From: an uncultured Planctomycetia bacterium
GTDB lineage: Bacteria > Omnitrophota > Gorgyraeia > Velamenicoccales > JABMQK01
Length of the DNA stretch: 50,804 nucleotides
NCBI GenBank assembly: GCA_964520705.1
Contig: CAZFPS010000002.1
Coordinates: 1-50,804, forward strand
Direction: 5' to 3'
Within the stretch, counting starts at the first letter, position 1. Each line of letters starts with the position of its first letter. Both the position numbers and the translations under genes were made by a program. Positions 2 to 49,600 of this stretch are shown in pieces. Below the pieces are notes generated by a model. That model did not search any database. It was not told the origin of the DNA and saw only the letters and a program-made list of their open reading frames with translations.

Positions 2-1627
2 CCCATCAAAGATGAAAATTTGACCAAAGCAATTGAAGAAATTGTGGAAGCAAACGGCACTACTTTAATCCACAGGACACCCGAGAAAATTATTACAGAA
101 TTAGAGGAGAAAGTAGGCGCAAACGACAAGACGCTCAAGGAGCGTGTTGCCTTCTTGAGGGCCGCCATAGAAGAAGCTTATGCGCCAGCCAATAGCGGCA
201 GATACACATTCTATCATGCCTTAGTTGCCATCAGCAATTTCTTGGTTGAGGTTGCCCAGCAGATTGCTAAGAGCGAGAATCATCTTAATGTATATCTGGC
301 AAGAGACGGTATCAACTTCTGGTTAGCCGGTTATCTATGGGCCAAGAAGGAGAACAAATTGTCAGAGTTCAAAGACAATAACGTTATCTTTCACCTCTCC
401 CGTTCACAATTGGGCCATGCCCATGAAGTGATGAAGATGATTGCAGAGGATACTGCTGCTATCGTAGCAAAAGACGATAAAGCAGATTACTGGCAGACCT
501 TTATGAAATATTTTGAGGCTTATGTAAACGAAGATGCAGAATTCAGAACAATTGTAGAAGTAACTGCCAACCGTTTAACTAAGAAGATAAAAGATGCGCC
601 TCAGGTGAGGATTGTGGAAAGCTTTGCCGAAGGCCTCTTAACTGGGTTCTTAAAGGCAGTTATATTAAAGAATAATCCGCAGGCCAATGTTGAGGAATTC
701 ATCACTGCTCCTAAATGGATACCTGAAGCCAAGAGGGGGGTAGCTTCATTCAAGTTCAATGAGAATAAACTTCAAGAAAGAATAGCTGGTTGGTTTGTTA
801 AAGAAGGGTTAGCTGCTCCTGAGCAGATAGAAGTAACATCGTTTGATAAAGTAGACGACAAGAAAGAAGTAACAGGCGCAGATGATAGGAAGCTTGAGAG
901 AAAATATCTTGAGGCTCAGGTTTATCCAATGGATTATCCTTTGGCAGAAGTTAACCTAGGCCATCCCATTGATTCTCGTAACGGCGCCACTGTAAAGTCC
1001 AGTGAAACCAAACAGGAGAGCTTCTATTTAAGACAGCTACTGATCATTAACGCTATCGCAGAAGGTACTTCTTTACCAGTTCGGTTCCCTGCTCCTGCTG
1101 AAGAAAGAAGAGATCTGGTTAACCACTTAGTCTTTACGCATAACGAGATATTTACTACCGTCTCTGATAGTGAACAGCAGGAATTATTGAATAGGCTTAA
1201 CGCTTGGGTAAGGTTAATGAGCCGTGTTTATGGAACAAGCTTTAACAGTGTAGTAGAAGGCATAATTGAATCAGGAAAAGACGCAGTTTATAGATGGCAG
1301 TTCCAGCGCTTCCTATTTGAATTCAGACAGTTTGATACCTTTGAGAACTTTTATGAGACTATGACTTGGGCAGTGGTTTCTACGGCCAAGCCAGAAGCCT
1401 TCTATACCAAACAGCCCACCAAAGACGGTGCTTCTACCTATTACACCTTATTTGATATTGTTAACAGATTAAGAGAAACCAGAGCCATTATCGGTAAGGT
1501 CAGGAGAGATGTTACCAAACACAAGAGAATTAAGATCGCCTACGGCGAAGAAGAGACCAAAGGTGCAGGGGCAACTGCCCGCCAGGCCAAGAAAGATGAT
1601 TTTATAGATTTGGTAGAAAAGTATAAT
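2..1627 (+). other. Module of unknown function, N-terminally cut by the window edge
   Basis: Coherent non-repetitive translation (..RYTFYHALVAISNFLVEVAQQ..VYLARDGINFWLAGYLW..). No motif I can assign. Ends at the first SSSPV linker (1628-1642). Confidence 0.4.
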
Positions 1628-28600: not shown

Positions 28601-31600
28601 CTGGAGCGCGATACGCGCCCAAGAGAAGAAGAGGAATACAAGGATAAAGAAAAAAGAGGCAGGTCGTTATCAACCATGGTGGTATTAAATGATTTTACTG
28701 AAAAGCAATTCCAAGAGATTAATGAGGCTGCAAGAATATTTATTTCTGAAGGCAAGTTTATTTGGCAAAGAGATACTGATTGTTTATATGTTAAAAATGC
28801 GCTAAATCAGAGCTTAATTGATATCACATCATTTAAGGCTGCCATCTTTGATCTGGATGGCGTGCTTGCAATAGTTAACCATTTGCATTATCTTTCCTGG
28901 AAGATGATATTTGAAGAAGGTTTGCTCCTCGGAAAAGAACTTACCAGGGAGGATTATAGAGAATACTTGAGCGAATATGTAAGACATGACGGCTGCCTGA
29001 ATATGTTGAAGCAAGGACCAAATACAAAAGAGAAATTTTCAAAGTTAGCCAGTTACATTCATCCTGAGATAAATAAACAGGAATATAGATCTTTGCCAGA
29101 GGATATCAAGAAGCTTATACAAGAAATAAAGTTTTTAGCTGATAAAAAAGATGAGTATCTTAATCATTTGTTGGAAGAGAGAAAAGAAGAAATAAAGGCT
29201 TTACCAGGGGTACGAGAGCTGTTGGGTTATTTTAGAGACAGGGGGGTGAAATTAGCCGTCGCCACGGTTAGTAAAACCGCAATTCATATATTAAAGCTTC
29301 TGGAATTGGATGCATTATTTGACGTTATTATTACCGGGAATGATATCGGTCATTTTAGCAGTTATCTAAAGAAGAATATCGAAGGTAAGCCATTACCGGA
29401 TATCTTCCTTGAGGCAGCAGCTCGTTTAGGGCTTCAGCCTCAGGAATGCATAGGTTTTGAAGATACAAGTAAAGGAGTTGCTTCCCTTAAAAGTGCAAAT
29501 ATATTTACCATCGGGATAGACCCAGATGTCAAGGGGTTGCTTTCTCATGCAGATTTGGTAGTTAGAAATTTAGAGGAGTTAATAATTGCATGTCGCATTA
29601 GAGTTAAAGATCCTTCCTGTCCATTCCCGGGGCAACCATTGCCTTCCCCTGAAGCAGTAAAGAAAGAGGTCTTAAGGTATAATATCGGGAAGCTTGATAT
29701 TATTGCCGCTGATTCTTATGAAATCACGCAAGCTGTAGCCTATTTGTGTCATATAAATGAAATGGCTATGGCCTGCTACTTAGAATACTTAGCCAATGTG
29801 GGTTTAATTCGGGCAGGTCCATTCAAAGGATTCTTAGCTACTACTTATACGGATGGTCAGGCTGATGAATATATTCTTTTATCCAATTTTTATTCTGAAT
29901 ACAACATTCCTCTTCAGTTATCCGCTTCTTTAGTACATGAAATAGGCGCAACTTTTAAATTCCATAATACCCATCAGGAAAACAAACAAAGAGAAGATTT
30001 ATTCAGATTGCTTATACGCTTAGCTAAGATTAAGCCAGAAGATGAATTTCATGATTATACTGAACACATGCTCGGTGATCTGCAAAGCAAAGTAGGTGAT
30101 TATCAAGAAGCAAGGCATTATATAGAGTTAAGCTCTTCACCAGCGGATAATAAAGATTATTTAAATTTTATTAGACTTATCAAGTCTTTAGCCGATAAAG
30201 GGATATCTCCGGTAGTGATAGCAGATATGGATGAAACACTGACTCCTTCTCGCAGCATAATTAGTAAAGAGGTTGTCCAAGGCATGATAGGGATTCTATC
30301 TATAGGAAGACAATTTGTAATCCTTTCAAGTTCCGATAAAGCAGCAGTTGAGAAACAAATATTAAGCGAGTTTTTACCATTAGTTTCCAATAAGAATATC
30401 TTAATAAATCTTTATTTATTTGTTAACGCTGGCGCAGAGGCTTACAGGTATAATTTAAAAGAAGATAAGTTTGAACAAATATATAAGCTTGATTTAGCTT
30501 TTGAGCTAGGAGTAAGCGCGATAGCAAGCATTGAGCGGATTATCTTTGAAACAGTGGATAAATTTAATATTAAAGCCATAAGGGGAGAGTTTATAGATAA
30601 TAGGGGTGGGCAGATTACCTTTTTGGTAATTGGTAAAGACGCTACAAAAGAAGATAAACATCAATATAATGTCGATGGGGGGAGAACGAAGAGAGAATTG
30701 TACGCCGGGTATATCAACCAAAGATTAAAAGAAGAACAGTTTAATACGGTTGAAGCTAAAGTTGGCGGGACGACTTCGATAGATATCGGTTTGATAAATG
30801 CAAAAGGCAACGCCATAGATAAGATTATTAAAATGTTAAATATCAAAAGAAGTTCAGTTATTTACTTTGGGGATTCTTTTGATTTATCTGGAAATGATAC
30901 TCCGGTAATAGAGAAAGTAAATTATATAGTCAACGCTGGGCCGCATATTCTTAAAGTATCCAATGATAAGAAGGTGTTTACTCCCGCAATAATTGGTCCT
31001 GAAGGAATAATAGAATATTTAGCTGTTCTCGGCAGGGTTTCAAAGGAAAATACGTCTTCAAAATCAGCATCCCCCGTTTTAGATAAGAAAAATGATATGT
31101 TAGCTATAGGGGTAGATTTGGGGGGGACTAAAATTTCGGCTGCGGCAGTTAATGCCCGCGGTAAGCTGATAAGAGATTCGTATACGGTGATACCAACAGA
31201 TGCCAAGCTCGGAAAAGATAGAATAATAGACAACATATTACTGCAGATCAATAAATCTCTTGGGGTGAGCGCAATTGTATTATCGCAAATAAAAGGGATA
31301 GGAATTGCCGCCCCTGGAATTTTAGATCCCGCGTTAGGAGTGATCAAGAAAGCCAATCACCTCCCTGGTTTTATAGATTTAAATTTGAAGGATATTATTG
31401 AACAGGAGTTAAAACACAGGTATGGGGCATACTGGCCGGTGTTCATCCAGTACGATGCGACTGCTGCTGCTTTAGGGGAGGCGGTTTTCGGAGTCGGGAA
31501 AAAGTTCAGGGATTTCTATTATATGTCAATAGGCACCGGCATAGGCTCCGGGATAATTCGTAACCGGATGCTATTGAGCAAGGAAGAGGGAAATGATTTT

Positions 31601-34600
31601 CATATAAAAGAGTCTGGCTATATGTTGGGCATCGATCCGGTGAGGCCGGATGTGAAATTAACAAATTTAGCCTCCGGATCAGCAATGATACACGATATTC
31701 AGCAGGCCATCAAGGAAGGGAGGGTAAGCGCATTTAGCGATACTAACGAAGGCCGTAGGATAAACAGTGATAATATTATAAGAGATGGGGCTAAAAGCAA
31801 AGATGAAGTCATATTGCAAATTATCAGGAGGTCGGCAAGGTATATCGGGTTGGCCTTATCTTCACTGATCGAAGAATATAGTGAAGAAATATTTATGCTC
31901 GGAGGCGGAGTAGTCAAGCTTGGTAATATTTATATTAAAGAGATAAGAAAGACTATGGAGGAAAGAAAGCCCGGATTTAACATCAATAATATACAATCTA
32001 CAAGATTATTCGATAAGGCCGGTATTTTAGGCGCGGTATTATTTATCCCTGGTTTTATAGATAAAGGCTTAATAAATTATTCCAGTTCTCCTGTAATATC
32101 GATGAAATCCGATTTAATTTTGCCTATTGGAAAGCAAAAGATGTATAGCAGAAATAAATCTTCCAGCTCACCAGCGGAGAAAAATTTTTATACTGAAAGG
32201 AAAACGGTTTCAGACCAGCGCGGAATACAGGATAGCCAAATATTTGAAGTTACATTCGATAAGGGAGATATAGGTAGAATAACTTTCAAAATAAATATCC
32301 CAGTGGGCCTTGATAAGTCACAAAGAATTAAGAAAATGGCTGTGCAGATTTATAACCGCTTAATGGTTAATCTATCGCATGAGATTATTGTCCGGTGTTC
32401 CCTTCCTGAATTTGATGAAGTAGTAGAAGCATTTAATAGAATTGACGAGCAGGGCAAGATAAGGGATAGAATAAGGATTATTTTCGGTAAATCCCTGGAA
32501 TTTAAGCATGTTGAATATTCAATTTCTCATTTAGATGTGCCTGATCGCATACTTTGGAGTCTTAAAGAACTTCCAAAGATTACAGAAAACGCATTATTTA
32601 TCGGAATCAATATCGGAAGCACTTATACGCGTTGCTCAGTGATCAGGGGAGATAAGGTATTGGTTAAGGCAAGTCAAATTCTCTGGAATTCTGAAAGAGG
32701 AACCCAGAATTGGGCGCGGCCTGCAACATATGCACAATTTGTTGAAGGCATTGAGCAGTTTATACGTACAACATTGGCAGGAGAAAACATAGATATAAAT
32801 GAGGTAAAAGGCATAGGTATCGGCACAGTGGGTATGGTTAAAGACAACAGTATTGTAACCACGGCAAATGTGACCCGGGGTCTCTGTGATGTTGATTTTT
32901 CTAAAGTTGCATCGCTGAAAGTTGATTTATCAAAGCGTCTTGGCGGAATGCCTGTTTCAATCGAGATGGATAATAAGGTTGCAGCATTAGGTGAACGGTT
33001 TGGCATAGGAGTAAAAAATGCGTTAATTGCAAAACTTGGTACTGCTATGGCAGGGAAAATGATTAATAAGGATGGAGATATCACTGAGAACTATGAAGAA
33101 GTAAGGCAGATTATAATCGACGAATCTTTCGACGCGTTAGTTAATCCGCATACAGGGGTGCGAGGAACGCTGCGTAGTTATGGTACGGCCGAGGCGTTTA
33201 TGAATCTTTCTCAAGAAGTATTAGGTGAACCGCTTAATTATAATCAAGTAGTAGATTTGTTTAATTCAGGAAAAGAACTAGAGGCAGAAGAAGTTTTTGT
33301 GTTAAACGGAAAATATCTTGCTAAAGGCTTTGCTGAGCTGGCGAGTATCTTTGGTAATGAGTGCGTGGTTATATCTGGTAAAAACCTTGAAGGCCGCCCC
33401 GGAGATATTATATTAAGGTCTATTGAAGAAACACTTAAAAAAGAATATTCCGATTTATCCTTAAAGGTAATGATAAGCGATATTGGCGTTGATTACGCCG
33501 TTGCTATAGGCGCGGCATATATGGCAGCTATAGATTATATGCAATCCCGCAAGTATGCCGAATTAAGCAAAATATATGGCCTTAACGAAGTTGAAATAGG
33601 CGATGTGCGTTTAATTGAAGAAAAGCTTGGGGTAACAGTTTTGCCGCGGACCGGCGCTGTAAAGAAATATATGCACCGTCTTATCGGATGCCAATATGAT
33701 ATAAAGAAGAATATCTTTTTGGAGAATACCCTGGTTAAAGAGAATTATTTCCGTCATCTGCGTCGTAATCTTGAAAGCGTTGGTAGGCAAATGCTGTGGA
33801 GGATTATCCATCGTGGTTATTCGAGCAAGCTGGAGAATGTTATCCGTGCAACCAGACAGGCAAATCTTGCTTTAGCGATAGAACAGATCCGTGGATGTAT
33901 CGATACAAGTAAAATACATTATTATGACGCAGCTCTTATTGCCGCATATCGTAAAGCGCTAGATAAGCTATTCGCTAGAGCGATTCGCGACAATGGATAT
34001 TTTGGAAGAGAACGTCTGCATAGCCTTAAGTTCAATATTGAAATATATTGTACGCTTTTACCTGTTTCGTTTTCGCTATTCACAGATATGTATGATTTCA
34101 TCAGGCGTATTTATGATGATTTGTTTGGTCTTGGCTATAATATTCGTATGGTAGAAAAACTGGAAGAGCAGCTGGGTATGCGGCAAAGAGGCAGTAGTTA
34201 TCAACTTCGTTTCTTCAGGCGAGATGATTCTAGTAAACGCTTCTTGGTTCATCCTTATGCAGGATTTATCGCGCCAGAAATTAAGGCTGTATCTCTTAAA
34301 ACAGGAATACGGGCTTTAAATAATAAGATTCTCATCCGATTAAAACAGCATCCTACTAATCCTGTGATAGTAAGAATAGATGGTAGACCGGGTAACCGTA
34401 AATCACATTCCATTTCATTGCTTATAGAAAGTTTGGCAAGGCACGTAAACAAAGATGAGATAGCTTTAATTGAAGTTAATGATTACAAGAAACCGGATCT
34501 TTTCTTATTTGATAGTGACTCTTTTTCTCGTGATTATCAGGCATTATTATCCAGCAAGAAATACAAGGTTATTCTAGTAGAGGGTACCATTATCGAATTG

Positions 34601-37600
34601 TATATGCCTCACCCGTTGCCGATAGGAGATTTTACCGTATACATTGAATCAATAGAACAACGAAGAATGGAGTATCTTTTAAACGGGAACGACAAGGAAC
34701 GTTTAGAATATTTCTTGCAGTATTATCCCTACCATAACATTATTATGCGATATCGCACCGATTATATGCGCCAGATCGCGGATTTCGTTATAGACACATA
34801 CCTTATACCTGAGGAAAATATTACTAATGTTGAAGAATTATGTTCTTCACAGTCTTTACTGTATAAATTAGCATCAGGAGAATATTTTGCTCCTGATAGA
34901 TTAAACCAGGGATTAATTAACGGGGGTTCTGCGGAAAGAATATTTGGCAGCCAAACAGTTATAGCAAAGGCTTTTGCTTGGTTATCTGAGAAACAACTTA
35001 TAGATAGCCAAGATGGGTTACGAGTTAACATTTTTACTTCTAATGGATTCATCTCTGGTTATGATGATAATGGCTTTGGTTTCGCTGAAAGCATTTTTAC
35101 AAATGAAAACCTAAGTATAGAGGAAAAAAATAGCCTTGTTTTGTTTAACCTTTTCCTGTTGTTTAAAAATAGAGAAATAACCATTAAAGGGCTTAATGGA
35201 GAGCCGATTAAGTACAGCATATATAGGGAAACAGTAGCATTGCCTACCCTTGTAAAGGAGCGGAATAATTTATATAATTTAGCATCATTTATTTCCGGAG
35301 TTGAAAAGTTAGGTGGTTCTAATGAACAAATTAGAGAATTCATAGGGTTGAGCATGACCAGTGTTACTGCATGTCCTGCTACCTCTTTAGAAGAAATATT
35401 CCAGTATCTTTCTCATTACCAGCAGAATTTTAGCCAGCCTCTATATGTTGTGCATTTGGTGAATATAAATATGCCGGCAACGATTACAAAAATTATGCAA
35501 GGGTTAACAGCTAAAGTACTTAGTTTTCCCTTCTCCGTTAACAATAGTGAATATGAGGTATTTAATCCTGTAAAATTAAAAGCTGTTATCAGCGATAGGA
35601 GAGTTTTATTGGGAATTCTTGAGGGGCATTTGACGCCTGTTCAGTTTAATAATTTGCAGGCGAGATTTGATTTGGTTCATCCTTACTTAGCGCATGCCCC
35701 TCCGGAAAAACAGGAGCTAGTTATTTATATAACCCCACGGACAAGCCAGACCGCACAAGGAAGAATTATCGCCGAATATATTAAAGACGGTATAAATTAT
35801 CCCAACGTAGTTCAGTTACACCCCATCATTTTAAATAGTAATTTAGGCGCAGAATACCTCAACCATTTCTTTATCGCTGTCCTTTTTGATGAAATCCAGT
35901 TCCACCATTTACTTGGATACGATCAGAAAAATGGGGATATACACACGTTTGGCTTTTTAGAAGCACAACCCACAATTCTAAAAGCAGTCAGCGGTAATAT
36001 TGATGCGTTAGCTAATATGGGAATTATTCCTGATCCTATATGGGGGCAAAAAATCAGTGCAGAGGGATCAAAAGTAGTTTCTGAGTCAAACTATTTTATT
36101 AAAGAATTTTATAGTAGGCTTCAAGGATTGGGGTTGCGTTTTACCTTTGCCACGCTTAGCATAGATTATGATGATATCAATGCAGATTTATCTTATGCTA
36201 CAAAAGGATTTGTAGCGCATCTAGATAAGCATATAACGGTTAACGATAAACATCCGCGTTTTGCTATTAGTATCCTTGGGTTACCCACCGGTCCCTCTGT
36301 GGGTATCGACTTGTTACAGGATTTCTTGGCTTCGATGGTGGAGGCTACGGATGCCATTGGTATCCCGATTGTCGGAGGGCATACCGTTGAAAACTCCGGT
36401 ATAATTTATACCATTGTATTCGTAGAGGTTATAGCTGAATCTAAATTACTCTTAGCGGTTCAGAAAGAAGAAGTTGCTCTTGCTCAAACTGGCAAGTGGG
36501 CATTCAATGAAGATAAGTTAATTACTACTTTCCGAGCGCAAGGGTGTGCCGCGAAATATCCCCCGGATAAACTAGATGAGATTATTAAACATGCGATAAC
36601 AAAGCTTCCATTAAATAATTTCGGTAACATACATGTTAAGGATGATGTTATTCTCTACCATCTTGATGATCAAAGTTCGATTGCTTTTACTGTTGATATT
36701 ATTAAACCCATTGTTAATTCCAGTAAGCTTTTTAGCCGCATTGCCGTGGTACATGCCACAAGCGACTTGTATGCTAAAGGCATATTTCCTGAAGGTTCAA
36801 TTGGAGTAATGTTTACGCCTGCATATATAAAGCCAGCAAGTTTAACCAATATAATACAAGGTGGAAAAGAAGAGATGTCGCGTCTTACAACTACATATCT
36901 CGGGAGTTATTCTGTACCCAACAAAGATTTATTCTATGGTGCCCTTATGTATGGCATATGCGAACGTAGTGCTTATATCAGTAATTCTACTGTTCAGGAA
37001 GGGGACTGGTTAATTCTTACGAAACCTCTAGGGTCAGGGGTTATAGCGAGCTATATGATTATGAAAGGGCTCGAGTTGAGTCCCGAAGAAATTAAGATAT
37101 ATGAGAATATGTTAAGCCACCTTATAGAGCCAAATGACAAGGCATGTTATGCAATGCGTACGATAGGCGCGCATGCTTCTACTGATGTGACTGGTTTTAG
37201 CCTCATCGGGCACCTAAATGAGATGTTGGAGTTGACTGGCTTAGGAGCAGAATTGTGGTTTAATAACATCCCATTTTTACGCAGCGCAGAACAGTTTTAT
37301 TCAGGGGCATTTTCGTGTAGCGTAAACCGTAATATGCATTATTTCTCGGATCTTGTTGAAATCTCCAGAAATGTAGATAGCTATGCTAATGCTGGAAGAA
37401 TAGCTTTGTTGTATGATGCGCAGACCTCTGGAGGCATGCTTATTTCCGCTAGTCCAGAACAGGCGCGAAGGATAATGGAGATCCTTGATAATAATGATAT
37501 AGAAGGTGCGGTTATTGGCCGGGTAACTTCACGCCTTGAACGACCTATCAGAATAGTAGAGAAACCTGATTGTTATATTCCGATTATTTCTTCTTGCGCA

Positions 37601-40600
37601 GAGAAAAAAGGCATGGATTCATCTATTACCTCCAGCTCGCCGGTTGAGAATAGATCCAGCAGTCTGATAAATCTGGAACTTGGTTTACCTATTGCTATAG
37701 TGTCTTCTGCTATAGATGTGAAAGCATTCTCATTAACAGAGGCACTTCATGATATCAAAAATAAGTTTATTGCTGTCAATGGGTTCATGTCTCTTTTTAC
37801 TAGGAAAATGCCCGGGCCAGAAAATGAGTCGTTGATTGTCTTCATGGAATTAGGAGTAAGATTTGAAGATTATCTCAAGAATTATCTTAAAGGAAAGCTG
37901 GGAAGCGAAGTAACATTAGAATATTTGCAGAATAATTTAATGGCGTTTATTGACGCAAGAACGCAACTGGAGAAATGGTTCGCCTTGAATAGGAACAAAC
38001 TGGATACGCGTTCACTAAAGTGGGTAAGTATGGTTATCGAAGATTCCGGAAAAACAATTGATTCTATTCTGTCGCTTTCCTATGTTTGGATGGGGCATTC
38101 CATGAGAGACGCTGATATTATTAAAGAGATAATCGGTTTTTCTGTAGAAAAGTTTAGGCACTTACATCCTAAAACAATTATAAACGTTTATATGGAAAAC
38201 GTGCCGACTACTCCAGTATTTATTTATGCCGATATTTTGAGAGCTGCTTTAGATGAAGCTCTTTATAATGCGTGGAAATACGGCGATAGAATACAAATTG
38301 CTTTAAATGTAAGAGTCATCAAAGGCAATGAATTAGAAGTTAAAGTTTCAAGTTTTGGTGAAGTTTTATCAAGCGAAACCTTGGCAAGAATATTCTTACC
38401 TAGAGAGCGGGGAGAAGCGGTAGAGGCTATTGAAGGCTCGGGTATTGGTTTAGCAGCCATTAAAAGGAATTGTGATCTTATTGGCGGCAAGGCAGTTTTT
38501 GCTAGTACTAGCAATCAAGAAAATATCCTCACTTTAACCACGCCCATGAATGCATCACTGCATACACTGCCTTTTATCAGTCATGTTAGCCCGCATAATC
38601 TTCTTATTGTAATTTCCGGGCTTGCTGGTTCAGGGAGGCGGGTTTCTGCGCGTGCTTTGGCCGGCCGTCTAGGTCTTAGATACATTAATGCCGGATTTTT
38701 GATGAGAGTTTTATTCTATTTCCTTGTGAAGGATAATCCCGGAATTTCCTTAAAAGACGAAGCCACTATTTCACGGTATTTAATTAATTTCTTTCAAGAT
38801 AACAGGATTATCTGGGAAGAGCCTTTAATTATTGACGGTATTAATAGCGCTAAAAGAGGAAATGACGGTACATCTTTGCGGGTAAAAATTAAGTTGGAAG
38901 TCGCTAATCGTATTGAAATGTTTGATGCCTTTGCAAATTTAGATTTTGTGAAAGCAATTCTTCAGAGTCAATTGAACAGAATTGTAGAATATCTTATGCA
39001 TGGATATGCATATAGTGGAATAGTTATTAGGTCTACTGAGCCTTGGCTTGAAGCCGACCTGAATATTATGTTAGATGCGGATACGGAAGTTAGGGGTATC
39101 CGCTTAGGAGAAATCCTTGAAGTAGTTGATAAGCGGGATAAAGAAACAGGAAGGGTTGATTTTGGGCCGCAGCAATTTCCGGAAATTACCGGCATCGAAG
39201 TCATACATAATGACAATATGTCGGCCAGGGATGTTGTAGACAGGATTATTGAATTAATTACGATGTTAAGAAAAGATGTGGAGCAGTTTAATAAGTTAAT
39301 GAATGAATGGACGCTTTTGTATTACAGCAAAGACATGCATACTATTAGGAAGGTTGTTATAGAAGAGATAAAGGATAATTATGGTCAATTATATTTATCC
39401 TTCGGGATGAATCCGTCTTGTATGTTGGAAGATGCGCTGTCTTATTTCGATGATCTCATTCGGGCTATGCCTGATAAGTTTGAGACATACAAAGATAATT
39501 ATAAGGCTGTTCTTGAGAAAGAAAGTCTAGAGCGAGAACGAATAGAACAAGAAGCCGCAAGAATTTATACTTTGTTGTCAAGGCGGAAACAGGAATATTT
39601 AAAGAGAGAATACCTTGTTTTCTTCTCTAAGAATAACCTTGGTTTAGGTCGCTCCAGCTCGCCGGTGGAGGCGAGGGCGCCAAAGGATATTCTTAAGGAT
39701 ATCCTTAAGGCGAGGCAGGAAGCGTATGAGTATTCACGGGAATTATTGAGCCATCAGCAGGATACACCTGCGGTCGGGCCGAATGCTTATAAGGCTATTT
39801 ATAAGGATTCTTTGATGGCGCTTGAGGCAGCGCGGGCTTACTTACAGGAACTCTTAAATTGTCCGCAAGATATATCTTTACAGCTAAAGCAGCTGGATGA
39901 ATTAGGTTTATTGGCTGAACTTCAGTCATCTCAAACCCCGAGTAAAGAGGCCAGCTCGCCGGCGGAAGAGAGGATTGCCGCTTCGACTTATACAAAATAT
40001 AAGATAATTATAACTAGCCGCTTAGGCTTGCATACAAGAGTAGCGGTAGGAATAGCAAAGATAGTTAACGAATCAAATGCCAGTGTAACTATTTATAAAG
40101 GAGATAACAAGGCTAATGCCGAATCTATTATGCAACTTTTGGCACTTGCTGCTGGTTATGGGGATTCTGTAGTAATAGAAGTTAGAGGTAATGAGACATT
40201 GGGTATAGCTAAAAGTATTGAGAGGTTGATTGCAAATGAAGCATTCGCAATCGAAAGTAGAGAGAGTACCGATAGAACAAATATACAAATCAAAGCTTTC
40301 GATAATGGTAGAGCTAATATCATAGTGAAATTCTATAATATAAAAACAAATGTATATGGTTATGCAGAAGGCAGCCATTTTATGGGAAATCGTATTTCCG
40401 AAAATATAAACGCAGGTCCGAAATTATTAAAAGAAAATATACCGGATTTAGAATTTGAAGTGACAAAAGAAGCGGAAGAGGTTTGGGATCATGCAGGCGG
40501 AACAGCTTTCTATGAGAATGTAACTATTCTTTGCCCGGTAAATAGAGTTAATGAAGTAGTAAGGACTATTACTGCTATTTTAGATATTAATGTAAAAGAA

Positions 40601-43600
40601 AAATCCAGCAGCCCGATACATCAAGCTTATAAAGAGAGAAATCAGTCTTTAGCTTCGCGTCTTGCAAAAATATCATTTATCCCCGCGGTTTGTATTGTTA
40701 TTTCCTGGTTTTCAGGTGATTTATATATTTCTTCCGTAAAGGCCTCTTTTTTGAGTGGATTAGCTATAGCTGGTATCGTGGGAGGTATAGCACGGGGTTG
40801 TGGGAGCTTTATTAGTCAGACGATAAGAAGGGAAGATGTTGATTGGGTTAAGGTGAGGCGCTGGATAATTGCAGGTGTAGCATTCAATGGGTTGATAGGT
40901 TTTGGTCTATGGTTTTGGTTCCAAGCCAACTTTATAAGTAGCAATTTATTAAAAGTGTTAATTGATTTAACTGCCTATACCATAATCGTAGTTTTACCTA
41001 TAAATTTCTTAATCCAGAAATATTTTATCTACAGAGAGGATAAAGCAAAAGTAAATTGGGAGAAAACCCTGAAAGATTTTATGCGTATTTATACCTTTAG
41101 CACTTTGTATTGGGGACCCGCTTTATTTATTGGATGGACCTTCTGGCCTGAAAAAATTGTACTTATTGCCGCAAATATGACAGTAATCTGGAGCGGGATA
41201 TTAATATATTTGTTAGATTTATGGATAAGTAAAATGCAGGTAAGCAGAAACGCGTCTCTCAATAATAATAGATCCTCTAGCTCACCGGTTGAAGTTAAAG
41301 ATATTACCTCCTTTATCCAGGGTGAAATTTATAAACTCGCGAAATTTATTTCTAAAGTCGGTCTTAAGTATGACCCAGAAGGCTTTGGCTACATTACTTT
41401 TGAAGAGGATGGCGAAGGAAGGGCTCCCAGGTTTGGCGAAGAAATGAATACAGCATTAAAATCAATAGATAAGTTTGTCGAACGCCATTATGGGGAAAAC
41501 TTTGAATCATTCCAGAATCCAGTTATTATCTCTGGTATAGGCATAGGCGGTCAGACTACCTGCGCGGTTCCGGCCTTGGGTTTTGTCGTAAAACACGGAA
41601 ACAGATTATTATATGTATGCGATTCTTTTGGGACTGATTACCGGGCCTTAGAAGAAAAGTGGCTGCAGGCCTTAAGAGATAATCCAAAAACAAAAATTCT
41701 CTGGGTAGTGGGTTCAAAATCCGGCAGTACTGATGAGACTATGGTTAACTTCCAGATGAATCTGAAGACGATGATCAGGATCTGGTCAAGGTTTATATAT
41801 GGAGACAAGGAAGTGGATAAAATCACAGAAGGGCTTTTTGTTAAATTATTTGATGGAAAGCCGCTCTCTGAGAAAAGATTCGCCAGCCTTAATCTAACTA
41901 CGGAGCAACTTCAAATTCTGCGGATTGTGTTTAAGAATTTGATTATTGTTACGGGTAGTAAGGAATCGGGTTCCAGATTAGCAGGATTGAAAGTCTTATT
42001 TGATGAACTTTATGATAAGGAAGAAGATAAAGTTATTTCAATTACTATGCTTAATAATCTAGGCGGAAGGTTCCAGGGCTTAAGCCCTAATTCCTTTATC
42101 TATAATGCGCTTTTAGGCATGAATGTAAGAGCCATGCTTGAGGTAGCCAGAGAGGTAGCTATTCTGCAAAGGACAGAATCTGTTTATAGGTCAAAAAAAG
42201 AGGCTATAAATCTATGGCTTAGCAAAGTACAGCATTTATTGATCGCTGTACCCAATGACATTATCTTTGGTCGTCTAGCAGAAGCCTTGGGCCAGATGGT
42301 TCCGGAGAGCACTGGTAAGGGAAGAAGAGCGAAAACACCGGTAGGCATACAGACTTATGCCTATGACTCAGCGGTAATAAATAAAGCTTTTAAGGATATC
42401 AAGCCAGCCGATAAAGCTTACTTAGTATTGGATATTAAAGGAAATGAACCCATAAAACTGGATAAAGAGATTGGAAGCAACAATTTGATTATCCGGTATG
42501 AGCTACAAGAAATATCCGAAACGGAATTAGCTAAATTAGTCCAATTTCTAGAAGATGTAACGGCAAACTTCGGTATATTTAATACTGCCAGGGCACTCTT
42601 GGATAAGTACGCTGAATTAGGCAGTCCGCAATCAGTAGATTTATTTAAGGAAGAGTCAATTATAAAGATTATGTTTACACCTAATGAAAAAGACCCTAAA
42701 TACGCGGCTTTAGATGGTGCGCATAAAGGACTAAATGGAGTTTTTAATGACATAACTCCTTTCCGTCAGCCGGATGTGGAATTTGCCAAAGAATTAGTCA
42801 AGGGTGGATTAGGTGTTAAACAATTCAATGATGCCGGGAATACGGATGAAAATAAACTTCCTGTAAGAGATGAGAAGCAAAGAGATTTAGCTTATAAAGA
42901 AGATAGCTTAAAAGTATCTCAGGGCGCAGTTTTAGACTTGAGTACCCTGGTTCTAAAAGTAAACAATAACCAAGAATATCAAATAGGCGCTCAGGCAGGA
43001 GCGACCCTCTTGCAGATTCTTGAAAGATTGCCTTACCAGTCCCGCGCGCCCAATACCAATAACAAAAAAGACGCAATCATTACACTTATTGATGAATTAG
43101 AATCCCTGCAGAAAGAAATCCTACGAACAGGCATGCCAATAGATTCCTACCAGGATATAGAGGCCCTTAAGAATAGAAGAAATGAATTCTTTGATAATAT
43201 CATAAGGCTCGCATCAGATACTCCATTAACTAGCCAGGAAGAAGAAACAGCTAAGCAGTTAGCTGTTTTAATGCTTAAAGCCCACAAGGATGCTAAGAGT
43301 CTGAATTTTGTGCTCTATGAAGATAGAAACATCCTTACTGAGATTATTAAGAAATTTGCCGATTTCTTAGGCCTTGACCGTTTTGATTTTGGCCCCGCAG
43401 AGCAGCACAAATCTTTCCAGCTTACATCAGGCGGTATAGATGTATCAACAGAGGTGCTTATCCAGTCTGTAAAAGATTTAAAAAAGGTGCAAAATACCGA
43501 AGAGCCCATTATCTATGATGGATGCGTACCTAATTATCTCCATGGTTTATATCCTTCTGAAGTTGGAACCATATACTTAAGGGCTTATACCAAGAGGTTT

Positions 43601-46600
43601 AGCGAAGTTCGGACCGAGGCAGTAGTGTTGATGGCTAAAGATTTAACCGAAAAAGAAAACATAGCCAGCCTGATGGTTTTATTTACTAGGATGATGGAGG
43701 TTTATAGAGGAGTAAACTCCAGCTCGCCGGTTGAGGAAAAAAGAAGTGCTTTCGATTCTTTGATTGTTTGTATGGATAAATATACTCGAAATTATTTATT
43801 CAATGTCTTAACCCTTGGTGTGATGGCCGGGATATTCTTAGGATTAGGTTTATATCCTGAAAAAATAGCCAGCGGACAAGCCAGCGGTTATTTGAATATA
43901 TGGCTAGAGGCAGTCAGGACGACTATTTTTAATATAGAGGTTTTGTGGAAGACATTCGTTGGGTTTTTTGTTTTTGGGGTCATGACGGATTATTTAGCCA
44001 AGCGTACTAATAGAGAGGAGTATTCTTGGAAGGCCTTTAAAGGGGCCACAATGTATGCCTTATTGAAGTTTCTTATTGTGCCGGCATTCTTTATCGCGAT
44101 TGCTCCGTTTAATAAATTTGTGCGTGGTTTTATTTCAGGGCTCTTGCTTAGTTACCTTCTTTTAAATATCCGGGCAAAGACATTTTATACCAAGCATCAG
44201 AACGGAAATGCGGGAGTGTTAAAGACCCAGCGCGCATATGAGATGTATTGGTTGACGCGCCTATGGATTTTTGGACAGAACTTTATTGTGCAAATTCTCT
44301 TTCCCATTGAACGTAGGGCGTTAGCAAATGTTATTATTTCGCAGTTACATTCCTTATATAACAGTTATGGGTTGCATGAACAGAAGGCTTCGCTGATTGA
44401 AAGACAAGATTTAATGGAGTCAATTAGACGGTCACTCTTTATAAAATGGCTCAGGAATGTCCAAAACGGCATAGAAGGTTTAACATCCGTTAAGCTTGGT
44501 AGGCCATGGGATAATTCGGCAGCGCTGTTGGTACATGGTCTTGTTGCGCCGTTCACTTTATTAGCAAATAAATTGAATGCAAGGCTACGGATTGCACGTA
44601 TTTCCAGGCTGGGAGAGAAAGATGAAGGTACCGCCAATTTTAGCATTAGTTCCATCCCAGAGGTAATCAAAGATTTAAAGCAAGGCAGGATGATTATTAT
44701 AGTTGATGATGCAAATCGTGAGAATGAGGGCGATCTTATGATTGCCGCCCAGAAGATTACTCCTGAGGCAATCACTTTTATGGCTAAAGAGGCAAGCGGG
44801 CTTATCTGTATGCCTATGGAGGCTAAGAGATTGGATGAGTTAAAGATTGGGCTGATGTTTAAGGGGAGCGGTGACAAGCAGGGAACCGGGTTTACGGTTT
44901 CTGTTGATGCCAGAGAAGGGACCACTACCGGCATCTCTGCCTCTGATCGCGCTCAGACAGCTAAGGTTTTGATTAATCCAGCAACTAAGCCTGAAGACTT
45001 AAACCGTCCCGGACACATGTTTCCTCTGCGGGCCAGAGAGGGAGGGGTGTTGGAAAGAGCCGGACATACCGAGGCCTCAGTTACTTTAGCAAAATTAGCC
45101 GGCCTTTATCCGGCAGCGGTAATCTGTGAAATTATGAACGAAGATGGGACTATGGCTCGCCTGCCGCAGCTGGTGGAGTTCTCCAAAAAGTATAATCTAA
45201 AGATTGCTACTATAGCTGATTTAATTAAATATGTATCCGGCGCCACTTCTAGCTCACCGGTTGATAAAGACAAGAAGAATATAGAACCGTCCCCGATTTT
45301 ACAAGATTCTAAAAAGTTCTCTGTTCCGCTTACTCGGCTGATCGGAGAGTTGCAGAAAGAGCGCGCGATGGTTTGTTCTATCCAGTCGCGGTGGGAGCCG
45401 GCAGTAGCGGTAACAATTTTCGGAAGCGCGCGTATTTCTGAAGAAGATCCTTACTACCAAATCGGCGTTAATTTGGGAAGAGCTATATATAACCACGGTA
45501 TGGTTATTCGCACAGGCGCAGGCCCGGGAATGATGGATGCGCCATTCAGGGGGTATATAGAAGCCAGGGAATCTTCGGGCGTAGAAAAAACAGAAGAAAA
45601 TGCAACTCAAGGCGTAAGAATCACTCTTCCTTTTGAACAAGAAGCTTCTCCTTACTGCGAAGATATCCTGACATATTCTCACTTTATTAACCGTAAATTA
45701 GCTCTTTGTGAAAATATTATAGGAACTATTGTTTTGCCGGGCGGCTTTGGTACGATAGATGAATTATTCGAGAGTTTGCTTAGAGGCGTGCCGACAGTTC
45801 TTTTAGTCAAAAGTTACTGGCAGCCGATTATGGATGCTTTTGAGGAGAGTTGGGCGAGGGGCTCTTTACAGAAGAATATCGGACTGCGGTTTTTAATTAC
45901 AGATTCTATCGGAGAGGCCTTAGCGCACATCAAGAGTAACGCGCAGAATATTGAACTTATTAAGCCCGACCAAAATAAACTGGGGCAGGACAATAAGGAG
46001 ATTGAAGAAGGCCTGTTGCGGCTTAAGGGTTTACCGCCGACAGTTACCTTTGTCGGCCGGCCAGGAGAAGATTACTTTGGATTAGATATTGTTGGAGAAA
46101 TAGCCTTCCGCCTCTTGTCCTATGGTATCGCTATTCGTACAGCCAGCCGCGATGTATTATTCAAGCGGCTTTTAAAAACTACTCAGGATAATCATAAACT
46201 TAATTTACTGCAAGCTACTATTTTCTTGCCGGAAAAAGATATTCCTCTGACCGTAGAAGAACTAAGTTTAGGCAGGAATCTTATAGTTATCCAGGATATC
46301 TTTAACCATCAGGTTTTGATCACTGAAAATTCTTTGGGTTTTGTGTTTCTGCCCGGCGGGATAGGCACATTAAATAAATTATTTGATATACTCTGCGTAA
46401 TGCAGACGGGAAAAGTGTCCCGTAGGCCCATTGTGCTCATCGGTGGGGAATTCTGGCAGCCCATAAAGGATGCCATTGTAAATGCTACTCTATTTCGCTC
46501 GCCACCTTTGATTTCCGCGGGAGATGAGAACTTAATGCGTATTGTTGATACAACAGAACAGGCTTTGGAGATTTTAGGATTAGAACAGATTGCTAGTTCG

Positions 46601-49600
46601 CCGGTAGATCAAGGTATTGAGTCTCAAGATTTAGGAGAGTTAGGGTATATCGTTAGAAACATTCTAAGATATAAAAGAGCAAAGGCTGTAAAAGAAGATA
46701 AAAAAGGAAGATTGAATGCGCCTCAGCTTTTAGTAATAGCAATGTCCTTGTCGGTTATACTTAATAAAGAATATAAGCTAATTGAAGATATTGTTTTTAA
46801 AGAATACAGCCGTTTGTTGGATGAAGGAAAATCTGGATCAAGTCCTATACGGGCTTATCCTTTGAATGTCCCGGCGGCCGAGCAGAAAGAGGCATCAGTT
46901 AAATTTGGAGCGGATTTATTTGTCAGGTTATCTTTTATTCTCTATGGCAACAATTATGAAATAACTTTAAGCGAAGGACAAATGCACAAGGAGTGGGAAG
47001 AGGATTTAAGGGATTTAGCCTATAATTTATCTTCAAAGATTCGCGGCCCTCCTAGAAAACTTACCTTTTACATTTCTACTGATATAGAATTTACCGATTA
47101 CAGCGTTGCCGTAAGATTAACCGCAACCCACATAGTCCTGCACCCGTATTTCTTTAATCTATTCTCTGACTGTAAAAAGATCTGGCAGACTGAAATAATC
47201 CTAGATCTGCTGAATAAAAAATCAAAATCTTCATCTCCTCTGGGCTCCATAGTCAACACCTTTACCTCCAGCTCCCCCATCCAGCATCAGCTCGTCATCG
47301 ACCTTGTTTCTAATCAAATCATTCAGCGGCCTTCGGTTACCGGCAAGCGCATCTTGCGTAAAGAAGGCATTAGCGAAGGTATGGTTCTTGAGGGTATTGC
47401 TAACGGAACACTCAAGCTAATCTCTGAAAAAGCTTTTATCGAATCTTTAGATAGGTCTACTACCGGTATTGGTATCTCAGGCGGCGGCGACTGCGCCGGT
47501 ATAGCTGACTTCTTCCGTTCTTTAAGGTATAATCTAAAACCTGAATTAACCATGCTCGGTGTCAGGAATGCCGGTGAAGGCTTAATGGATAAAGACTTCT
47601 TAAGCAAGCTAATCTTAGTTGACCCTCTTTTAGCTGAAGACTTCCTCGGCCAATCCTCTACTCCCTACGGCTCTTCCCGCGAAGATCCTTTAAAAAAGAA
47701 TAAAGAAACCACGCAAAGGAATCTCTCCGGTTTTAAATTCTTCTATGGCACCGGCGGTAATGATCATTTAGGCCTCTTAGAGCGCTTCTCTCGATTGCTT
47801 CCAGAATTAGTGGTAGTAGGGACTTTTAAAAGTATTGATGGTGATGGTTGGGTTGCCGGCAGGCCTGCTCAGATGCTGGGTTTTTACACTGCAACCGGAG
47901 TTTACCAAAGGCAGCTTTGGGCAATTACCCAGAACGCCTATACTCATCAGCAGCGGCATGTGGTTGAGACTTTTGGCCGGGGTTGCGGCAAACTTGCCTA
48001 TGCTTCAAGCCGCAGATATCCAGAGAATTTTAATACACTCTCCAAAGAAGAGCAGCGTAAAATTATTGAATTCCGCGACCTGGTAATGATTATCGTTCCT
48101 GAAAAACCTACTTCTTTGCGTTCCATTGCCCAGGAAGCCAAAAGGATTAAGCAAGAACAGGGTGGAGTAGTGGTGGTAGTAGCCGAGGGTTTTATGCCTC
48201 CAGAATTAAAATCAGAGATCATCAGGCTTGGTTTAGATGAATCATTAAGAGACCGCTGGTTCAGGCATGACCTTCCTGTTGAAAGTATCTCTAGCCTTAT
48301 CCACAAAGAAGGAAGAGAGTCTCCGACTGATGACTTAAGTCTCATGCTTCAAGATCCGGAATTAGCTGCTCAATTTGCCAAGACCACCTGGCAGGCTAAA
48401 TTTGACCCCCATGGCAATGTCACTAAACTCGCTGGAATCACAAACTTCATCATCAAGGCCTTAGAAGTATTGGGCGGCGCTACTAAAGTCAACAGAGTCC
48501 TCTTTAATTACGGAGCCAGAGACGCTACCCCGGATGCTTATGATATTCATATGGGGGAAAAGATCGGTGTTGTCGCAGCGCAGCTTATTAATGACAATGT
48601 CATTGGCGGTAAAGCCGTAGTTTATTTTGAAGGGATGAATCCTAAAGAAGAAGAGCCTGAAGTTGTAGACTTAGTAGGTGTATCCGATAAGAACAACCTG
48701 AATAATCCGGACCTTTATACTGAAGAAGAATTAATTAAGAATGGAGTGTATTGGGAGAAAAAGACCAGCTCACCGGTAGTTCGAGATAACGCAGAGATGC
48801 TACAACTAATCTTTAATTTATTTAATTATTTTGACTGTCAGAATAAAATTCTTAGGCAACAGGTTTTATCTTTAAATAGGCCATTGAGTTTAGATGGGGA
48901 AGAGCCTGGTTACCTCGGGTATATTCCTTATGCTTATTATTATACTGATATTTTATATCTTATCTGGCGGTATTCCTCTTATCTAAATAAACAGCAAGAG
49001 ATAAAGGCCTTGGAGATTGGTTCAGGCGCAGGATGGTTCCTGTTGTTCCTTAAGGCCTTAAAAGAAAAGCCTCTAAAAGATAATCTGCGGCTGGAAGAAT
49101 TCCAGAAAAAGTTAATGAATATGGAATACGATAGATGGTTTAAAAAATTAAAAAGGCTGCTAGAAAATATGGAGTTTGAGGGGATTGATATTAATCTATA
49201 TCTTTGCCGCTTTGCCCAATGGAGAGGATTAAATGTATTAAATGCCGATATCTTGAATCCTCCTGTTTTAGATCATTACGACCTTACTTTTAGTGAAAAT
49301 GTATTAGATCTTTTGCAGGTTAATGGAAAGTTGTTTAAGCCCTATAACCCCGAAGCCAGCTTTGAATTAGGGAAAGAAGCATTGGTGAGGATCAGCCAAT
49401 TGACTAAGGCTGGAGGCTTAAGCATCCATACTTCTGATTTTGGCTTTCCTCTTAGAAGGGAAAGTATTAAAGAGTCTGGTTTTGAAATTTTAGAAGGCGA
49501 TCCGGCAGGAAGGATTCTTGTACTTCGTAAGGGTTACTCCAGCTCACCGGCGGAAAGAGATTTATCTTCGGCGATAAGCGTCTTCTCTAGTGTCTACTCC

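Follow-up and report, generated by a model that had tools for sequence, protein, structure and literature searches.

Giant open reading frames (ORFs) of the Omnitrophota pose a threefold puzzle: whether each gives one chain or many products, whether its enzyme domains work, and on which side of the membrane they lie. The puzzle is raised again by a 50,804-nucleotide (nt) stretch of DNA (contig CAZFPS010000002.1 of assembly GCA_964520705.1, forward strand; hereafter the window), in which the original prediction placed normally stand-alone enzymes of central metabolism side by side in one polypeptide encoded between nt 30143 and 49549. Why should such enzymes share a frame, and what, if anything, separates them? 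The answer that we favour, with a probability of roughly 0.7, is that the window is a stretch of an Omnitrophota giant gene of the "multi-enzyme metabolic" kind, longer than 16,934 codons, in which a punctuation peptide, (S)SSP[V/I], links one cassette to the next.

A six-frame count of stop codons revealed that bases 2-50803 of the plus strand form a single frame of 16,934 codons containing no TAA, TAG or TGA, against 582-1,804 stops in each of the remaining five frames. Since the frame is stop-free across the window, the 19-kb stretch 30143-49549 is the last third of a larger ORF piece and not a gene; the stretch does lie in one frame, as originally proposed, but the ORF is the whole window rather than those 19 kb. 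The giant frame was missing from the list of ORFs of the window because it runs past both window ends. We compared the translation, tiled as overlapping 1,000-amino-acid (aa) pieces, with Pfam (E<0.01), and the stretch 30143-49549 also with NCBIfam. More than 20 independent domain matches were obtained, all of them in the giant frame, which together with the lack of stops bears out the concatenation of enzymes that are normally separate. About 20 distinct Pfam families tile the chain and none is wholly dominant: HAD is repeated 10 times yet accounts for only ~15% of the chain. The GC content ranges from 37 to 44% along the window, and the GC skew is positive nearly everywhere.

The chain is divided by a short recurring peptide. 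SSP occurs 35 times compared to 2.5 expected (14-fold), almost always as (S)SSP[V/I/A/L], and the sites are distributed along the frame as follows.

2..50803, plus strand: stop-free frame, segment of the giant gene
Upstream of nt 30134, plus strand: 16 junction motifs
30134..50755, plus strand: 19 junction motifs of the 3' part, (S)SSP[V/I/A/L], at aa 10045, 10695, 10722, 12545, 13219, 13318, 13536, 13760, 14574, 15084, 15532, 15613, 15744, 15757, 16256, 16514, 16762, 16816 and 16915

Not one junction site falls inside an annotated domain (31 domains covering 39% of the chain, P 3e-8), and 40% of the sites are found no more than 25 aa from a domain edge, compared to 13% of random non-domain positions. 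The start and end that had been assigned to the concatenated stretch from the letters alone coincide with the motifs at aa 10045 and aa 16514. The spacing from one motif to the next is for the most part 220-900 aa and resembles the distribution of protein lengths, with some junction-to-junction units of just 10-100 aa. In the HAD copies, the residue that follows SSSP takes the position of Met1 of stand-alone beta-PGM; likewise, a stand-alone ORF with a plain start (P0004) for the PGI-like module described below begins about at the window's motif, and stand-alone ORFs of this kind end within ~30 aa of the next one. Degenerate versions of the motif, SASPV and SSSSI, mark further borders, and three sets of domains, LOG1/LOG2, histidine kinase/Cmk and ROK2 to SelD, have no motif between them.

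At the nucleotide level, AGCTCNCCGG occurs 10 times versus 0.28 expected, always on the plus strand, and the consensus of the 3' half is CCAGCTCNCCGGT, in sense orientation throughout. From nt 30134 onward the motif codons read yCC AGC TCr CCG GTn GAr; 13/19 of these 3'-half sites have AGC, and 13/19 have CCG, compared to 20-22% overall usage. A nucleotide-level layer, or a recent spread of junctions, could therefore also be at work at the motif. Three other explanations for the repeated sequence were considered and rejected. A genome-wide DNA motif resembling an uptake sequence, Chi or REP is at odds with its being sense-only and in frame, and with its confinement in loci L003 and L004 to the multi-module ORF, none being present in the other 8-17 kb. 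Internal starts with a Shine-Dalgarno sequence do not fit the codon after the Pro, which is GTN, ATH or GCG, with no ATG and two GTG, nor the lack of GGAGG upstream. Finally, RNAs or ribozymes embedded at the junctions were set aside, as the window has no Rfam family match and no tRNA. Literature searches returned no description of SSSPV-like junction motifs, nor of Omnitrophota polyproteins, and the punctuation looks to be a new feature.

Profile annotation of the stretch 30143-49549 bore out the PMM-like HAD, the two ROK domains, SelD, HATPase, the Cmk-like domain, HPr, RibB, the two LOG domains and PFK in the order in which they had been proposed. These modules, with the membrane modules and a duplicated small cassette, are the following.

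30146..31063, plus strand: PMM-like HAD-IIB (Pfam/NCBIfam, 43 bits against a cutoff of 41.8)
31076..32083, plus strand: ROK1 sugar-kinase module (Pfam ROK, E 8e-36)
32177..37633, plus strand: large module running from ROK2 through ~880 aa and a partial AIRS repeat to SelD (Pfam, NCBIfam)
37646..39655, plus strand: histidine-kinase core (HATPase_c 38231-38548) and Cmk-like domain (38606-39259)
39668..39952, plus strand: 96-aa cassette, function-unannotated, copy 1, just ahead of HPr
39965..40606, plus strand: HPr module (domain 40001-40234, PTS-HPr E 2e-15)
40619..41278, plus strand: six-helix membrane module (hydropathy, positive-inside charge counts)
41291..43720 (aa 13764-14573), plus strand: divergent PGI-like (double-SIS) module with a ~300-aa C-terminal extension
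43733..45250, plus strand: membrane module of about four helices fused to RibB (DHBP synthase 44660-45232)
45263..46594, plus strand: LOG1 (45407-45934) and LOG2 (46037-46570)
47282..48766, plus strand: PFK-like module with a signature of the pyrophosphate (PPi)-PFK type and a large insertion (PFK E 9e-21; aligned to PDB 5xoe)
48779..49540, plus strand: class I methyltransferase-like module, putative and not confirmed (motif-I-like ALEIGSGAG)
50459-50743, plus strand: 96-aa cassette, copy 2, at the window end

We audited the catalytic residues of these modules by their family motifs, checked against PDB alignments for Cmk (3r20) and PFK (5xoe). The PMM-like HAD-IIB, bordered by SSSPA (aa 10045) and the degenerate SASPV (aa 10355), keeps its DMDETL and GD..GND motifs. 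ROK sugar kinases are recognized by DxGGT, a catalytic Asp, GTGIGGG and the zinc motif GHx(9-11)CxCGxxGC. In ROK1 we found DLGGT, the catalytic Asp, GTGIGSG and GGG to be kept and the CxCGxxGC zinc motif to be absent, while ROK2 (32600-33526), a second match to ROK/FGGY_N (E 2e-12), is degenerate, with NIGST, GTAMAGK and SGK where nucleotide-binding motifs are expected; both score under the TIGR00744 cutoff. The ~880 aa between ROK2 and SelD (33530-36190, aa 11177-12063) gave no Pfam match at E<=1. SelD itself (36524-37543) was recovered at equivalog level (TIGR00476, 229.4 bits against a cutoff of 125) and keeps the Cys/Lys of GCAAK as well as DD, TVD, SD and TDVTGF, with the Asp ligands intact. 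The histidine-kinase core (HATPase_c, E 9e-9), which includes an H-box-like LHDIKNKF, keeps the N and G2 boxes and has lost the Asp of the G1 box. The adjoining Cmk-like domain stands right at the Pfam cutoff (26.2 bits against 26), and its P-loop reads GLAGSGRRV compared to GxxGxGK[ST], the Lys being replaced by Arg in the 3r20 alignment.

HPr (TIGR01003, 60.4 bits against 47.9) keeps GLHTR with His15 and ESIM with Ser46, and RibB (Pfam, 285 bits; TIGR00506, 241.6 against 177.45, equivalog level) keeps all of its signature motifs, DDxxRENEGD, the Cys, PGHMFPL and GHTE. LOG1 is intact (PGGFGTIDE; TIGR00730, 103 bits against 96), while LOG2 is degenerate, reading PGGIGTLNK with the Glu and the Gly-rich motif lost. 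For PFK we take the key sites to be Asp127, Arg171 and the Mg-binding Asp103 in E. coli numbering. The PFK-like module has GGNDH in place of GGDGS, which puts Asn at the Mg-binding Asp103, together with the PPi-type Asp104 and Lys124; KSIDGD and FGRGCG are kept, and the score is far under the NCBIfam cutoffs. The GGNDH variant is also present in the multi-module protein P0008 (GWGGNDHS), and P0119 has a GGDDH form, which suggests that PFK-like modules of the GGNDH type are a distinct conserved clade specific to multi-module proteins. At the end of the stretch, a methyltransferase had been called; the motif-I-like LEIGSGAG speaks for it, but the Methyltransf_25 match (E 0.26) is below threshold, a single-sequence AlphaFold2 (AF2) model of the module had a predicted local distance difference test score (pLDDT) of 39 and was not used, and a phmmer search of the C-terminal 768 aa against the PDB gave nothing useful.

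The possibility that most modules lack catalytic residues was not borne out by this motif audit, in which roughly two-thirds keep them and the remainder look regulatory or inactive. Judged by its motifs, the array is a mix of intact and degenerate modules. RibB, SelD, HPr, LOG1 and the HADs look fully competent and, with the dN/dS of ~0.1 found for the older blocks (see below), are signs of real function. Signs of paralogous, diverged copies are the low family scores (the ROK, PFK, Cmk and PGI modules are all far under the NCBIfam family cutoffs), the five degenerate modules, the presence of nine beta-PGM-type HADs and the reordering of modules in relatives. Most modules are best read as diverged paralogues and not as textbook housekeeping enzymes. 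The original prediction, which set upper glycolysis made as a polyprotein or metabolon against paralogous cargo or effector copies, is supported in part, with signs pointing both ways; the junction motif lends the polyprotein idea indirect support.

Among the modules, the one called PGI needed the most support. Its region had no Pfam PGI match at E<0.01 and no PGI match by phmmer against the PDB, and the NCBIfam PGI matches were weak (E 4e-6; 25.9 bits, cutoff 487). When species-representative genomes were scanned, four relatives of this stretch came up, 47-65% identical, three of them labelled Omnitrophota and one Planctomycetia, in whose alignment SKSGxTDET, NLGGRFQG, PES(T/L)GKGR and PFRQPDVE.AK are invariant; the window has SKSGSTDET, GGRFQG, PESTGKGR and PFRQPDVEFAK. 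When a profile of five relatives was compared with the PDB, the six best matches were all PGIs (E 7e-4 to 0.09) with collinear motifs. An AF2 model built from an alignment of six database homologues had a mean pLDDT of 72.8, and Foldseek with this model returned PGIs as its top 18 matches (E 3e-9, TM 0.62 to 1zzg). A profile search of 1.84 billion representatives found 48 family members at E<=1e-10, followed by proteins of ~400-450 aa (E 1e-10 to 1e-5) that we read as canonical PGIs from their length and the profile region matched. The catalytic residues of PGI we take to be Arg272, Glu357, His388 and Lys518 in rabbit numbering. Across the PGI-like family the active-site Arg (in GGRFQG), Glu (in PESTGK) and Lys (in VEFAK) do not vary, while a conserved His is missing from the canonical position downstream of the Glu of PESTGK. 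About 200 aa past VEFAK, in the C-terminal extension and out of order, stands an invariant EQHKSxQLTxGG with the spacing of the PGI 'GQHAFYQLIHQG' motif, which may be a permuted or duplicated segment. The original PGI call thus stands on the weak NCBIfam matches, the profile of relatives and the AF2/Foldseek comparison, and falls short of Pfam and of curated thresholds: on the model, it is right at the level of the fold, for a module that is very diverged and some 300 aa longer.

The family is 44-65% identical across metagenome-assembled genomes (MAGs), and other Omnitrophota encode it as a stand-alone ORF 778-877 aa long. The nearest sequences for two modules of the window are Omnitrophota MAG contigs (65% identity for the PGI-like module, 68% for the six-helix membrane module), and related multi-module ORFs are present in independent assemblies. 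These relatives share the PGI-like module alone, its neighbours and their order being different, and a conserved module order was rejected on that ground. An unbiased 4-mer scan of the multi-module relatives uncovered a different over-represented motif in each of several proteins: AGFG in P0040 (11 versus 0.09 expected), RSE.R in P0041 (22 sites) and SSAV in P0010 (5 versus 0.06 expected); ASSP[AT] in P0038 (5 sites) was found apart from the scan, by inspection and pattern search. The homologous PGI-like module is bracketed by each protein's own motif (SSAV, ASSPA, RSExR or AGFGA) at a spacing of 803-847 aa. The RSExR codons in L007 and the AGFG codons in L008 vary synonymously, and the peptide is therefore what is selected. 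By comparison, L003 (48% aa identity; 10013-13850) writes SSAV as AGC TCG GCG GTK at 5/5 sites, and the junction nucleotides are conserved between the window and L003 despite the change of Pro to Ala.

By protein, the junction peptides are RSE[T/M/V]R at 22 sites in P0041 (L007 140-18793) and AGFGA at 13 sites in P0040 (L008 3001-17304), the latter a complete ORF of 4,767 aa adjoining a two-component system; P0119 and P0038 are also among the multi-module proteins with recurring junction peptides of their own that bracket the PGI-like module. In the closest relative, L001, an open-ended ORF encodes a Peptidase_M54 domain (archaemetzincin-like; ~4330-4610, E 6e-9) downstream of SSSPV junctions, a candidate processing protease.

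The two transmembrane (TM) modules of the original prediction correspond to the only helix clusters that hydropathy finds, at aa 13549-13742 and aa 14599-14722, besides one marginal peak at aa 12134 in the AIRS repeat. Charge counts are consistent with a bundle of six helices followed by one of four, each with N-in/C-in orientation, and with such a topology all enzyme modules of the window could face the cytoplasm, where phosphorylated substrates are. By BLAST, the six-TM module is 68% identical to aa 1044-1238 of P0001, a partial Omnitrophica protein that has glutamate dehydrogenase and glycogen phosphorylase among its precomputed Pfam domains. As the module recurs in P0001 beside other enzymes, the membrane anchor is itself a shuffled cassette. 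P0001 was the single match of a 1,803-aa query; the six-TM module also has a weak MnhB-like Pfam match (E 0.014).

The cassette structure extends upstream of the stretch first described, where the array comprises the following features.

11291..29500, plus strand: upstream array of nine beta-PGM-type HADs and interspersed modules (Pfam)
aa 3768, 4043, 4316, 5783, 6067, 7469, 7728, 8383 and 9615, plus strand: DxD motifs of the beta-PGM-type HADs
19148-19921, plus strand: GT2-like region (Pfam, sub-threshold)
20336-20569, plus strand: Nudix (Pfam; Nudix box intact)
21437-21721, plus strand: DUF4922/GalT-like HIT (Pfam; HxHxQ intact)
24707-25045, plus strand: HATPase_c_2 (Pfam)
28154-28624, plus strand: PRK/Udk (Pfam; P-loop GPSSAGKTT intact)

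All nine beta-PGM-type HADs keep the FDLDGV, SSKN, Lys and ED motifs when aligned to L. lactis beta-PGM. The upstream calls of a beta-PGM-like HAD, a GalT-like HIT (DUF4922), Nudix and PRK/Udk held up. For the GT2 call, the region has motifs typical of GT2 (YNE, VDNRSPDKT, TDCD, QCGFKFF and FDTE) but is below threshold (E 0.0015, 19 bits against a cutoff of 23.3), and no matches to it were found in the PDB.

Two duplications in the window follow the junctions exactly. A direct repeat of ~950 nt (23156-24108 and 25121-26073, plus strand), 100% identical, corresponds to one HAD cassette; it starts exactly at TCC TCC TCC CCC and stops exactly at TCA TCG CCT GT, its flanks are unrelated, and the motif is written in different codon versions at its two ends. 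Such identity points either to a duplication or conversion of the cassette in the very recent past or to an assembly hazard. The copies of the 96-aa cassette (repeat 39650-39962 versus 50441-50753) are 89% identical in nucleotides and 86% in amino acids and are bounded by the motif on both sides; since copy 2 sits at the window end, a further module lies beyond the window. An older block duplication of ~4 kb (7793-11941 versus 13949-17971; aa 2598-3980 versus 4650-5990; ~72% aa identity) has its 5' border away from junction motifs, and most of it (~1,150 aa) has no Pfam or PDB match. Between internal paralogues, dN/dS was 0.126 for the block pair (over 1,145 codons); for two HADs it was 0.099. 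Each copy has hence been retained as a protein, and the older duplicated blocks show purifying selection.

Taken together, we propose that the gene would have been assembled from gene-sized in-frame cassettes of ~100 to 2,600 aa, many of which are stand-alone proteins in relatives, linked by the punctuation peptide (S)SSP[V/I]. Two even-numbered helix bundles (six and about four TM helices) would probably tether the chain to the inner membrane with the enzymes on its cytoplasmic face. Sugar-phosphate chemistry would be served by the nine beta-PGM-type HADs, the PMM-like HAD, the ROK kinases and the PGI-like and PPi-type PFK-like modules, sugar-nucleotide and nucleotide chemistry by the GT2-like, GalT-like HIT, Nudix, Udk, Cmk-like and LOG modules, and cofactor steps by RibB and SelD, with HPr and the histidine-kinase core as signalling parts. 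Both the topology and the enzymatic activities we infer from the sequence: for most cassettes, activity in the chemistry of sugar phosphates, sugar nucleotides, nucleotides and cofactors is plausible, and some may be regulatory or dead.

Several observations weigh against this proposal. The giant frame is open at both window ends, so that the gene ends and flanks lie outside the window, and the Omnitrophota affinity rests on the similarity of two modules only, marker genes being absent from the window. For the topology, Kyte-Doolittle hydropathy and counts of charges were used in place of a trained predictor. Two stand-alone or shorter PGI-like relatives (P0003, L002 7733-10366, and P0006) have hydrophobic N-termini that resemble signal peptides, and P0004 does not; such starts would put the module outside the cell, and the cellular side may differ between lineages. 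No protease domain was found among the 16,934 aa of the window (Pfam, E<0.01). Lastly, punctuation is not universal, as P0001, P0008, P0024, P0033 and others have no enriched 4-mer.

Within the frame of a punctuated giant gene, the function of the motif can be read in more than one way. That it has any role in proteolytic processing seems possible to us, with the balance tilted somewhat towards its having none. A specific version of this idea, which we entertain tentatively and would not wager on, is a polyprotein that amounts to an operon in one frame, cut at (S)SSP[V/I] by a dedicated lineage-specific protease to give enzymes and membrane proteins of ordinary size in fixed stoichiometry. It would explain why the motif is 14-fold over-represented and never inside domains, why the inter-motif lengths resemble those of proteins, and why stand-alone homologues begin at or near a motif and end at most ~30 aa away, with the post-SSSP residue replacing Met1 in the HADs. 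The bracketing of the same PGI-like module by the motifs of different proteins at 803-847 aa and the synonymous codon variation in L007 and L008, which marks the peptide as selected, agree with it as well, and cleavage has already been proposed for giant proteins by West-Roberts et al. 2023 (10.1101/2023.11.21.568195), who stated that the cleavage points were unknown. On the other hand, a polyprotein fits poorly with the lack of a protease domain in the window, with units of only 10-100 aa, with LOG1/LOG2, histidine kinase/Cmk and ROK2 to SelD not being separated by the motif, and with relatives that lack one; the codon bias of the 3' half (AGC TCR CCG) and the L003 nucleotides, which stay the same when P becomes A, hint at a nucleotide-level layer.

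The second reading, which we consider unlikely, takes the motif mainly as a recombination joint or evolutionary scar, with modules duplicated, converted and swapped in frame and a protein that works uncut. The repeats of ~950 nt (perfect) and ~300 nt (89%) start and stop exactly at motifs within unrelated flanks, neighbouring modules differ among relatives, the 3'-half consensus CCAGCTCNCCGGT is always sense, and the SSAV codons of L003 are identical at 5/5 sites, all as expected of a joint. Against this, homologous recombination would have only ~14 nt to work with, which is short, the motif is encoded differently at either end of the perfect repeat, the motif codons of L007 and L008 vary freely, and the older 4-kb block duplication is not bounded by motifs; gene conversion between paralogues would also give repeats that end at the limit of homology. 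The cleavage role and the module-exchange role of the motif are mutually compatible. Punctuated polyproteins in which one lineage-specific peptide is both the processing site of a protease and the joint for in-frame duplication and exchange of modules are a doubtful proposition.

Third, the modules could replace housekeeping enzymes and be the sole glk, pgi and pfk of the cell, held together as a membrane-tethered metabolon. Canonical hexokinase is found in 25/176 and PGI in 67/176 complete Omnitrophota genomes (Nielsen & Lui 2026, 10.64898/2026.06.07.730766), the PGI-like family is 44-65% identical across MAGs with invariant active-site Arg, Glu and Lys, and the topology is compatible with a cytoplasmic location. 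We regard this as quite improbable, given that the same survey found pfkA in 176/176 genomes, that ROK, PFK and PGI are far under the family cutoffs, that PFK has Asn at the Mg-binding Asp103 and the canonical His position of PGI is not conserved, and that nine beta-PGM copies and a dead second ROK are unlike a streamlined pathway.

We give little credence to a fourth reading, in which the array is a pseudo-enzyme scaffold or effector whose folds are kept for ligand binding or for structure in a surface or predation apparatus and not for catalysis. ROK2, the G1 box of the histidine kinase, Cmk (K to R), LOG2 and PFK are indeed degenerate at key residues, the literature on Omnitrophota giants favours roles directed at prey cell walls, and some PGI-like relatives carry signal peptides. 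Such a scaffold would leave unexplained the complete motifs in all nine HADs, RibB, SelD, Nudix, HIT, Udk, LOG1 and HPr, the nature of the substrates, which are cytoplasmic phosphorylated metabolites, and a dN/dS of ~0.1. Finally, a false long ORF due to mis-assembly, mis-reading or a non-standard code has a negligible chance of being correct: the exact ~950-nt repeat could in principle mislead an assembler, but none of the three stop types occurs in 16,934 codons against hundreds in each other frame, more than 20 domain matches lie in frame, related multi-module ORFs come from independent assemblies and no RNA genes are embedded.

The punctuated giant gene was then set beside known systems. 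The polyproteins of picorna-, poty- and coronaviruses consist of one frame with gene-sized units and a protease-specific cleavage motif at each border. The window resembles them in its one long frame, gene-sized units and short lineage-specific border motif, and differs in being bacterial, in having no cis protease among the domains found, in units that are metabolic enzymes and anchors, and in that cleavage is here only proposed. Polymorphic toxins carry demarcation motifs, VENN in CdiA and PxxxxDPxGL in Rhs, that are tied to recombinational swapping and processing. Like them, the window has a short conserved peptide at the border of exchangeable modules; unlike them, with one variable C-terminal toxin each, it has dozens of junctions, enzymes and no immunity genes. 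In AROM, CAD, fatty-acid synthases (FAS) and polyketide and non-ribosomal peptide synthetases (PKS/NRPS), consecutive steps of one pathway are arranged with conserved order and linkers in an uncleaved chain. Normally separate enzymes share one chain in the window too, but their order is not kept in relatives, families are repeated and several copies are degenerate.

Closer parallels exist within the phylum, where giant ORFs occur in most Omnitrophota classes (Seymour et al. 2023). The class of "multi-enzyme metabolic clusters" of Nielsen & Lui comes nearest: its criterion is a single ORF of >=10,000 aa, and the frame of the window has at least 16,934 codons, with many enzyme Pfam families tiling one polypeptide. 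Shared families are HAD (PF13419), HATPase_c (PF02518), ROK (PF00480), NUDIX, HIT and methyltransferase, the window's match to the last being below threshold; their catalogue counts 44 long proteins with ROK, 74 with HAD and 136 with HATPase_c, and their collection comprises 5,761 ORFs of at least 10 kaa. Old, diverged internal repeats and sparse TM helices are further similarities, and the window fits a TM-only, cytoplasmic reading, 46% of their giants being TM-only with domains presumed cytoplasmic. It differs in its junctions, a term search of their paper having found no junction or cleavage motif, and in the absence of the domains that prevail in their sugar module (PGM/PMM alpha/beta/alpha, starch synthase and GT1). 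A further trait of the class is a neighbourhood of type II/IV secretion or pilus genes and glycoside hydrolases; the window, filled by the giant frame, contains no flanking genes.

West-Roberts et al. described Omnitrophota giant proteins in which HEAT_2, HATPase_c, NUDIX, Lysine_decarbox and HAD_2 are common domains and some of which carry triosephosphate isomerase, glucose-phosphate isomerase, FBPase, PGM/PMM and aldolase domains. The window shares with these archaeovorins HEAT_2 (sub-threshold), HATPase_c, NUDIX, LOG, HAD_2 and domains of glycolytic type. It has no SecA-DEAD, C39/S8 peptidase, GT5/GT1, TPR or PPDK match (Pfam, E<0.01; these could lie outside the window), and whereas HEAT repeats and GT5/GT1 are commonest in archaeovorins, it has one HEAT_2 match under the cutoff (22.7 bits against 27.7) and a GT2-like region only. 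Their glycolytic domains are predicted to be extracellular, whereas the hydropathy of the window suggests a cytoplasmic location. The concatenation of stand-alone enzymes is hence a known property of Omnitrophota giants, of which the window is probably a further example.

Because the junction motif parses the chain into gene-sized units, the question of one protein or many becomes directly testable by proteomics. If the motif is a cleavage site, giant proteins would become tractable for dissection in silico, for structure prediction and for the reconstruction of metabolism, including the hexokinase and PGI steps that are apparently absent from most complete Omnitrophota genomes; the motif would also supply the cleavage map that earlier work on giant proteins lacked, and a block of metabolism would be expressed like the proteome of an RNA virus. 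If it is a recombination joint, the motif would explain how giant genes grow and shuffle.

Over most of the first 3,700 aa of the chain (nt 2-11250) there is no family match, the only signals being sub-threshold ones to HEAT_2 and HD. Closed ORFs of at least 150 aa are limited to 44365-44934, 49834-50445 and 4510-5013; all three are antisense to the giant frame, one of them over RibB, and are most likely chance ORFs.

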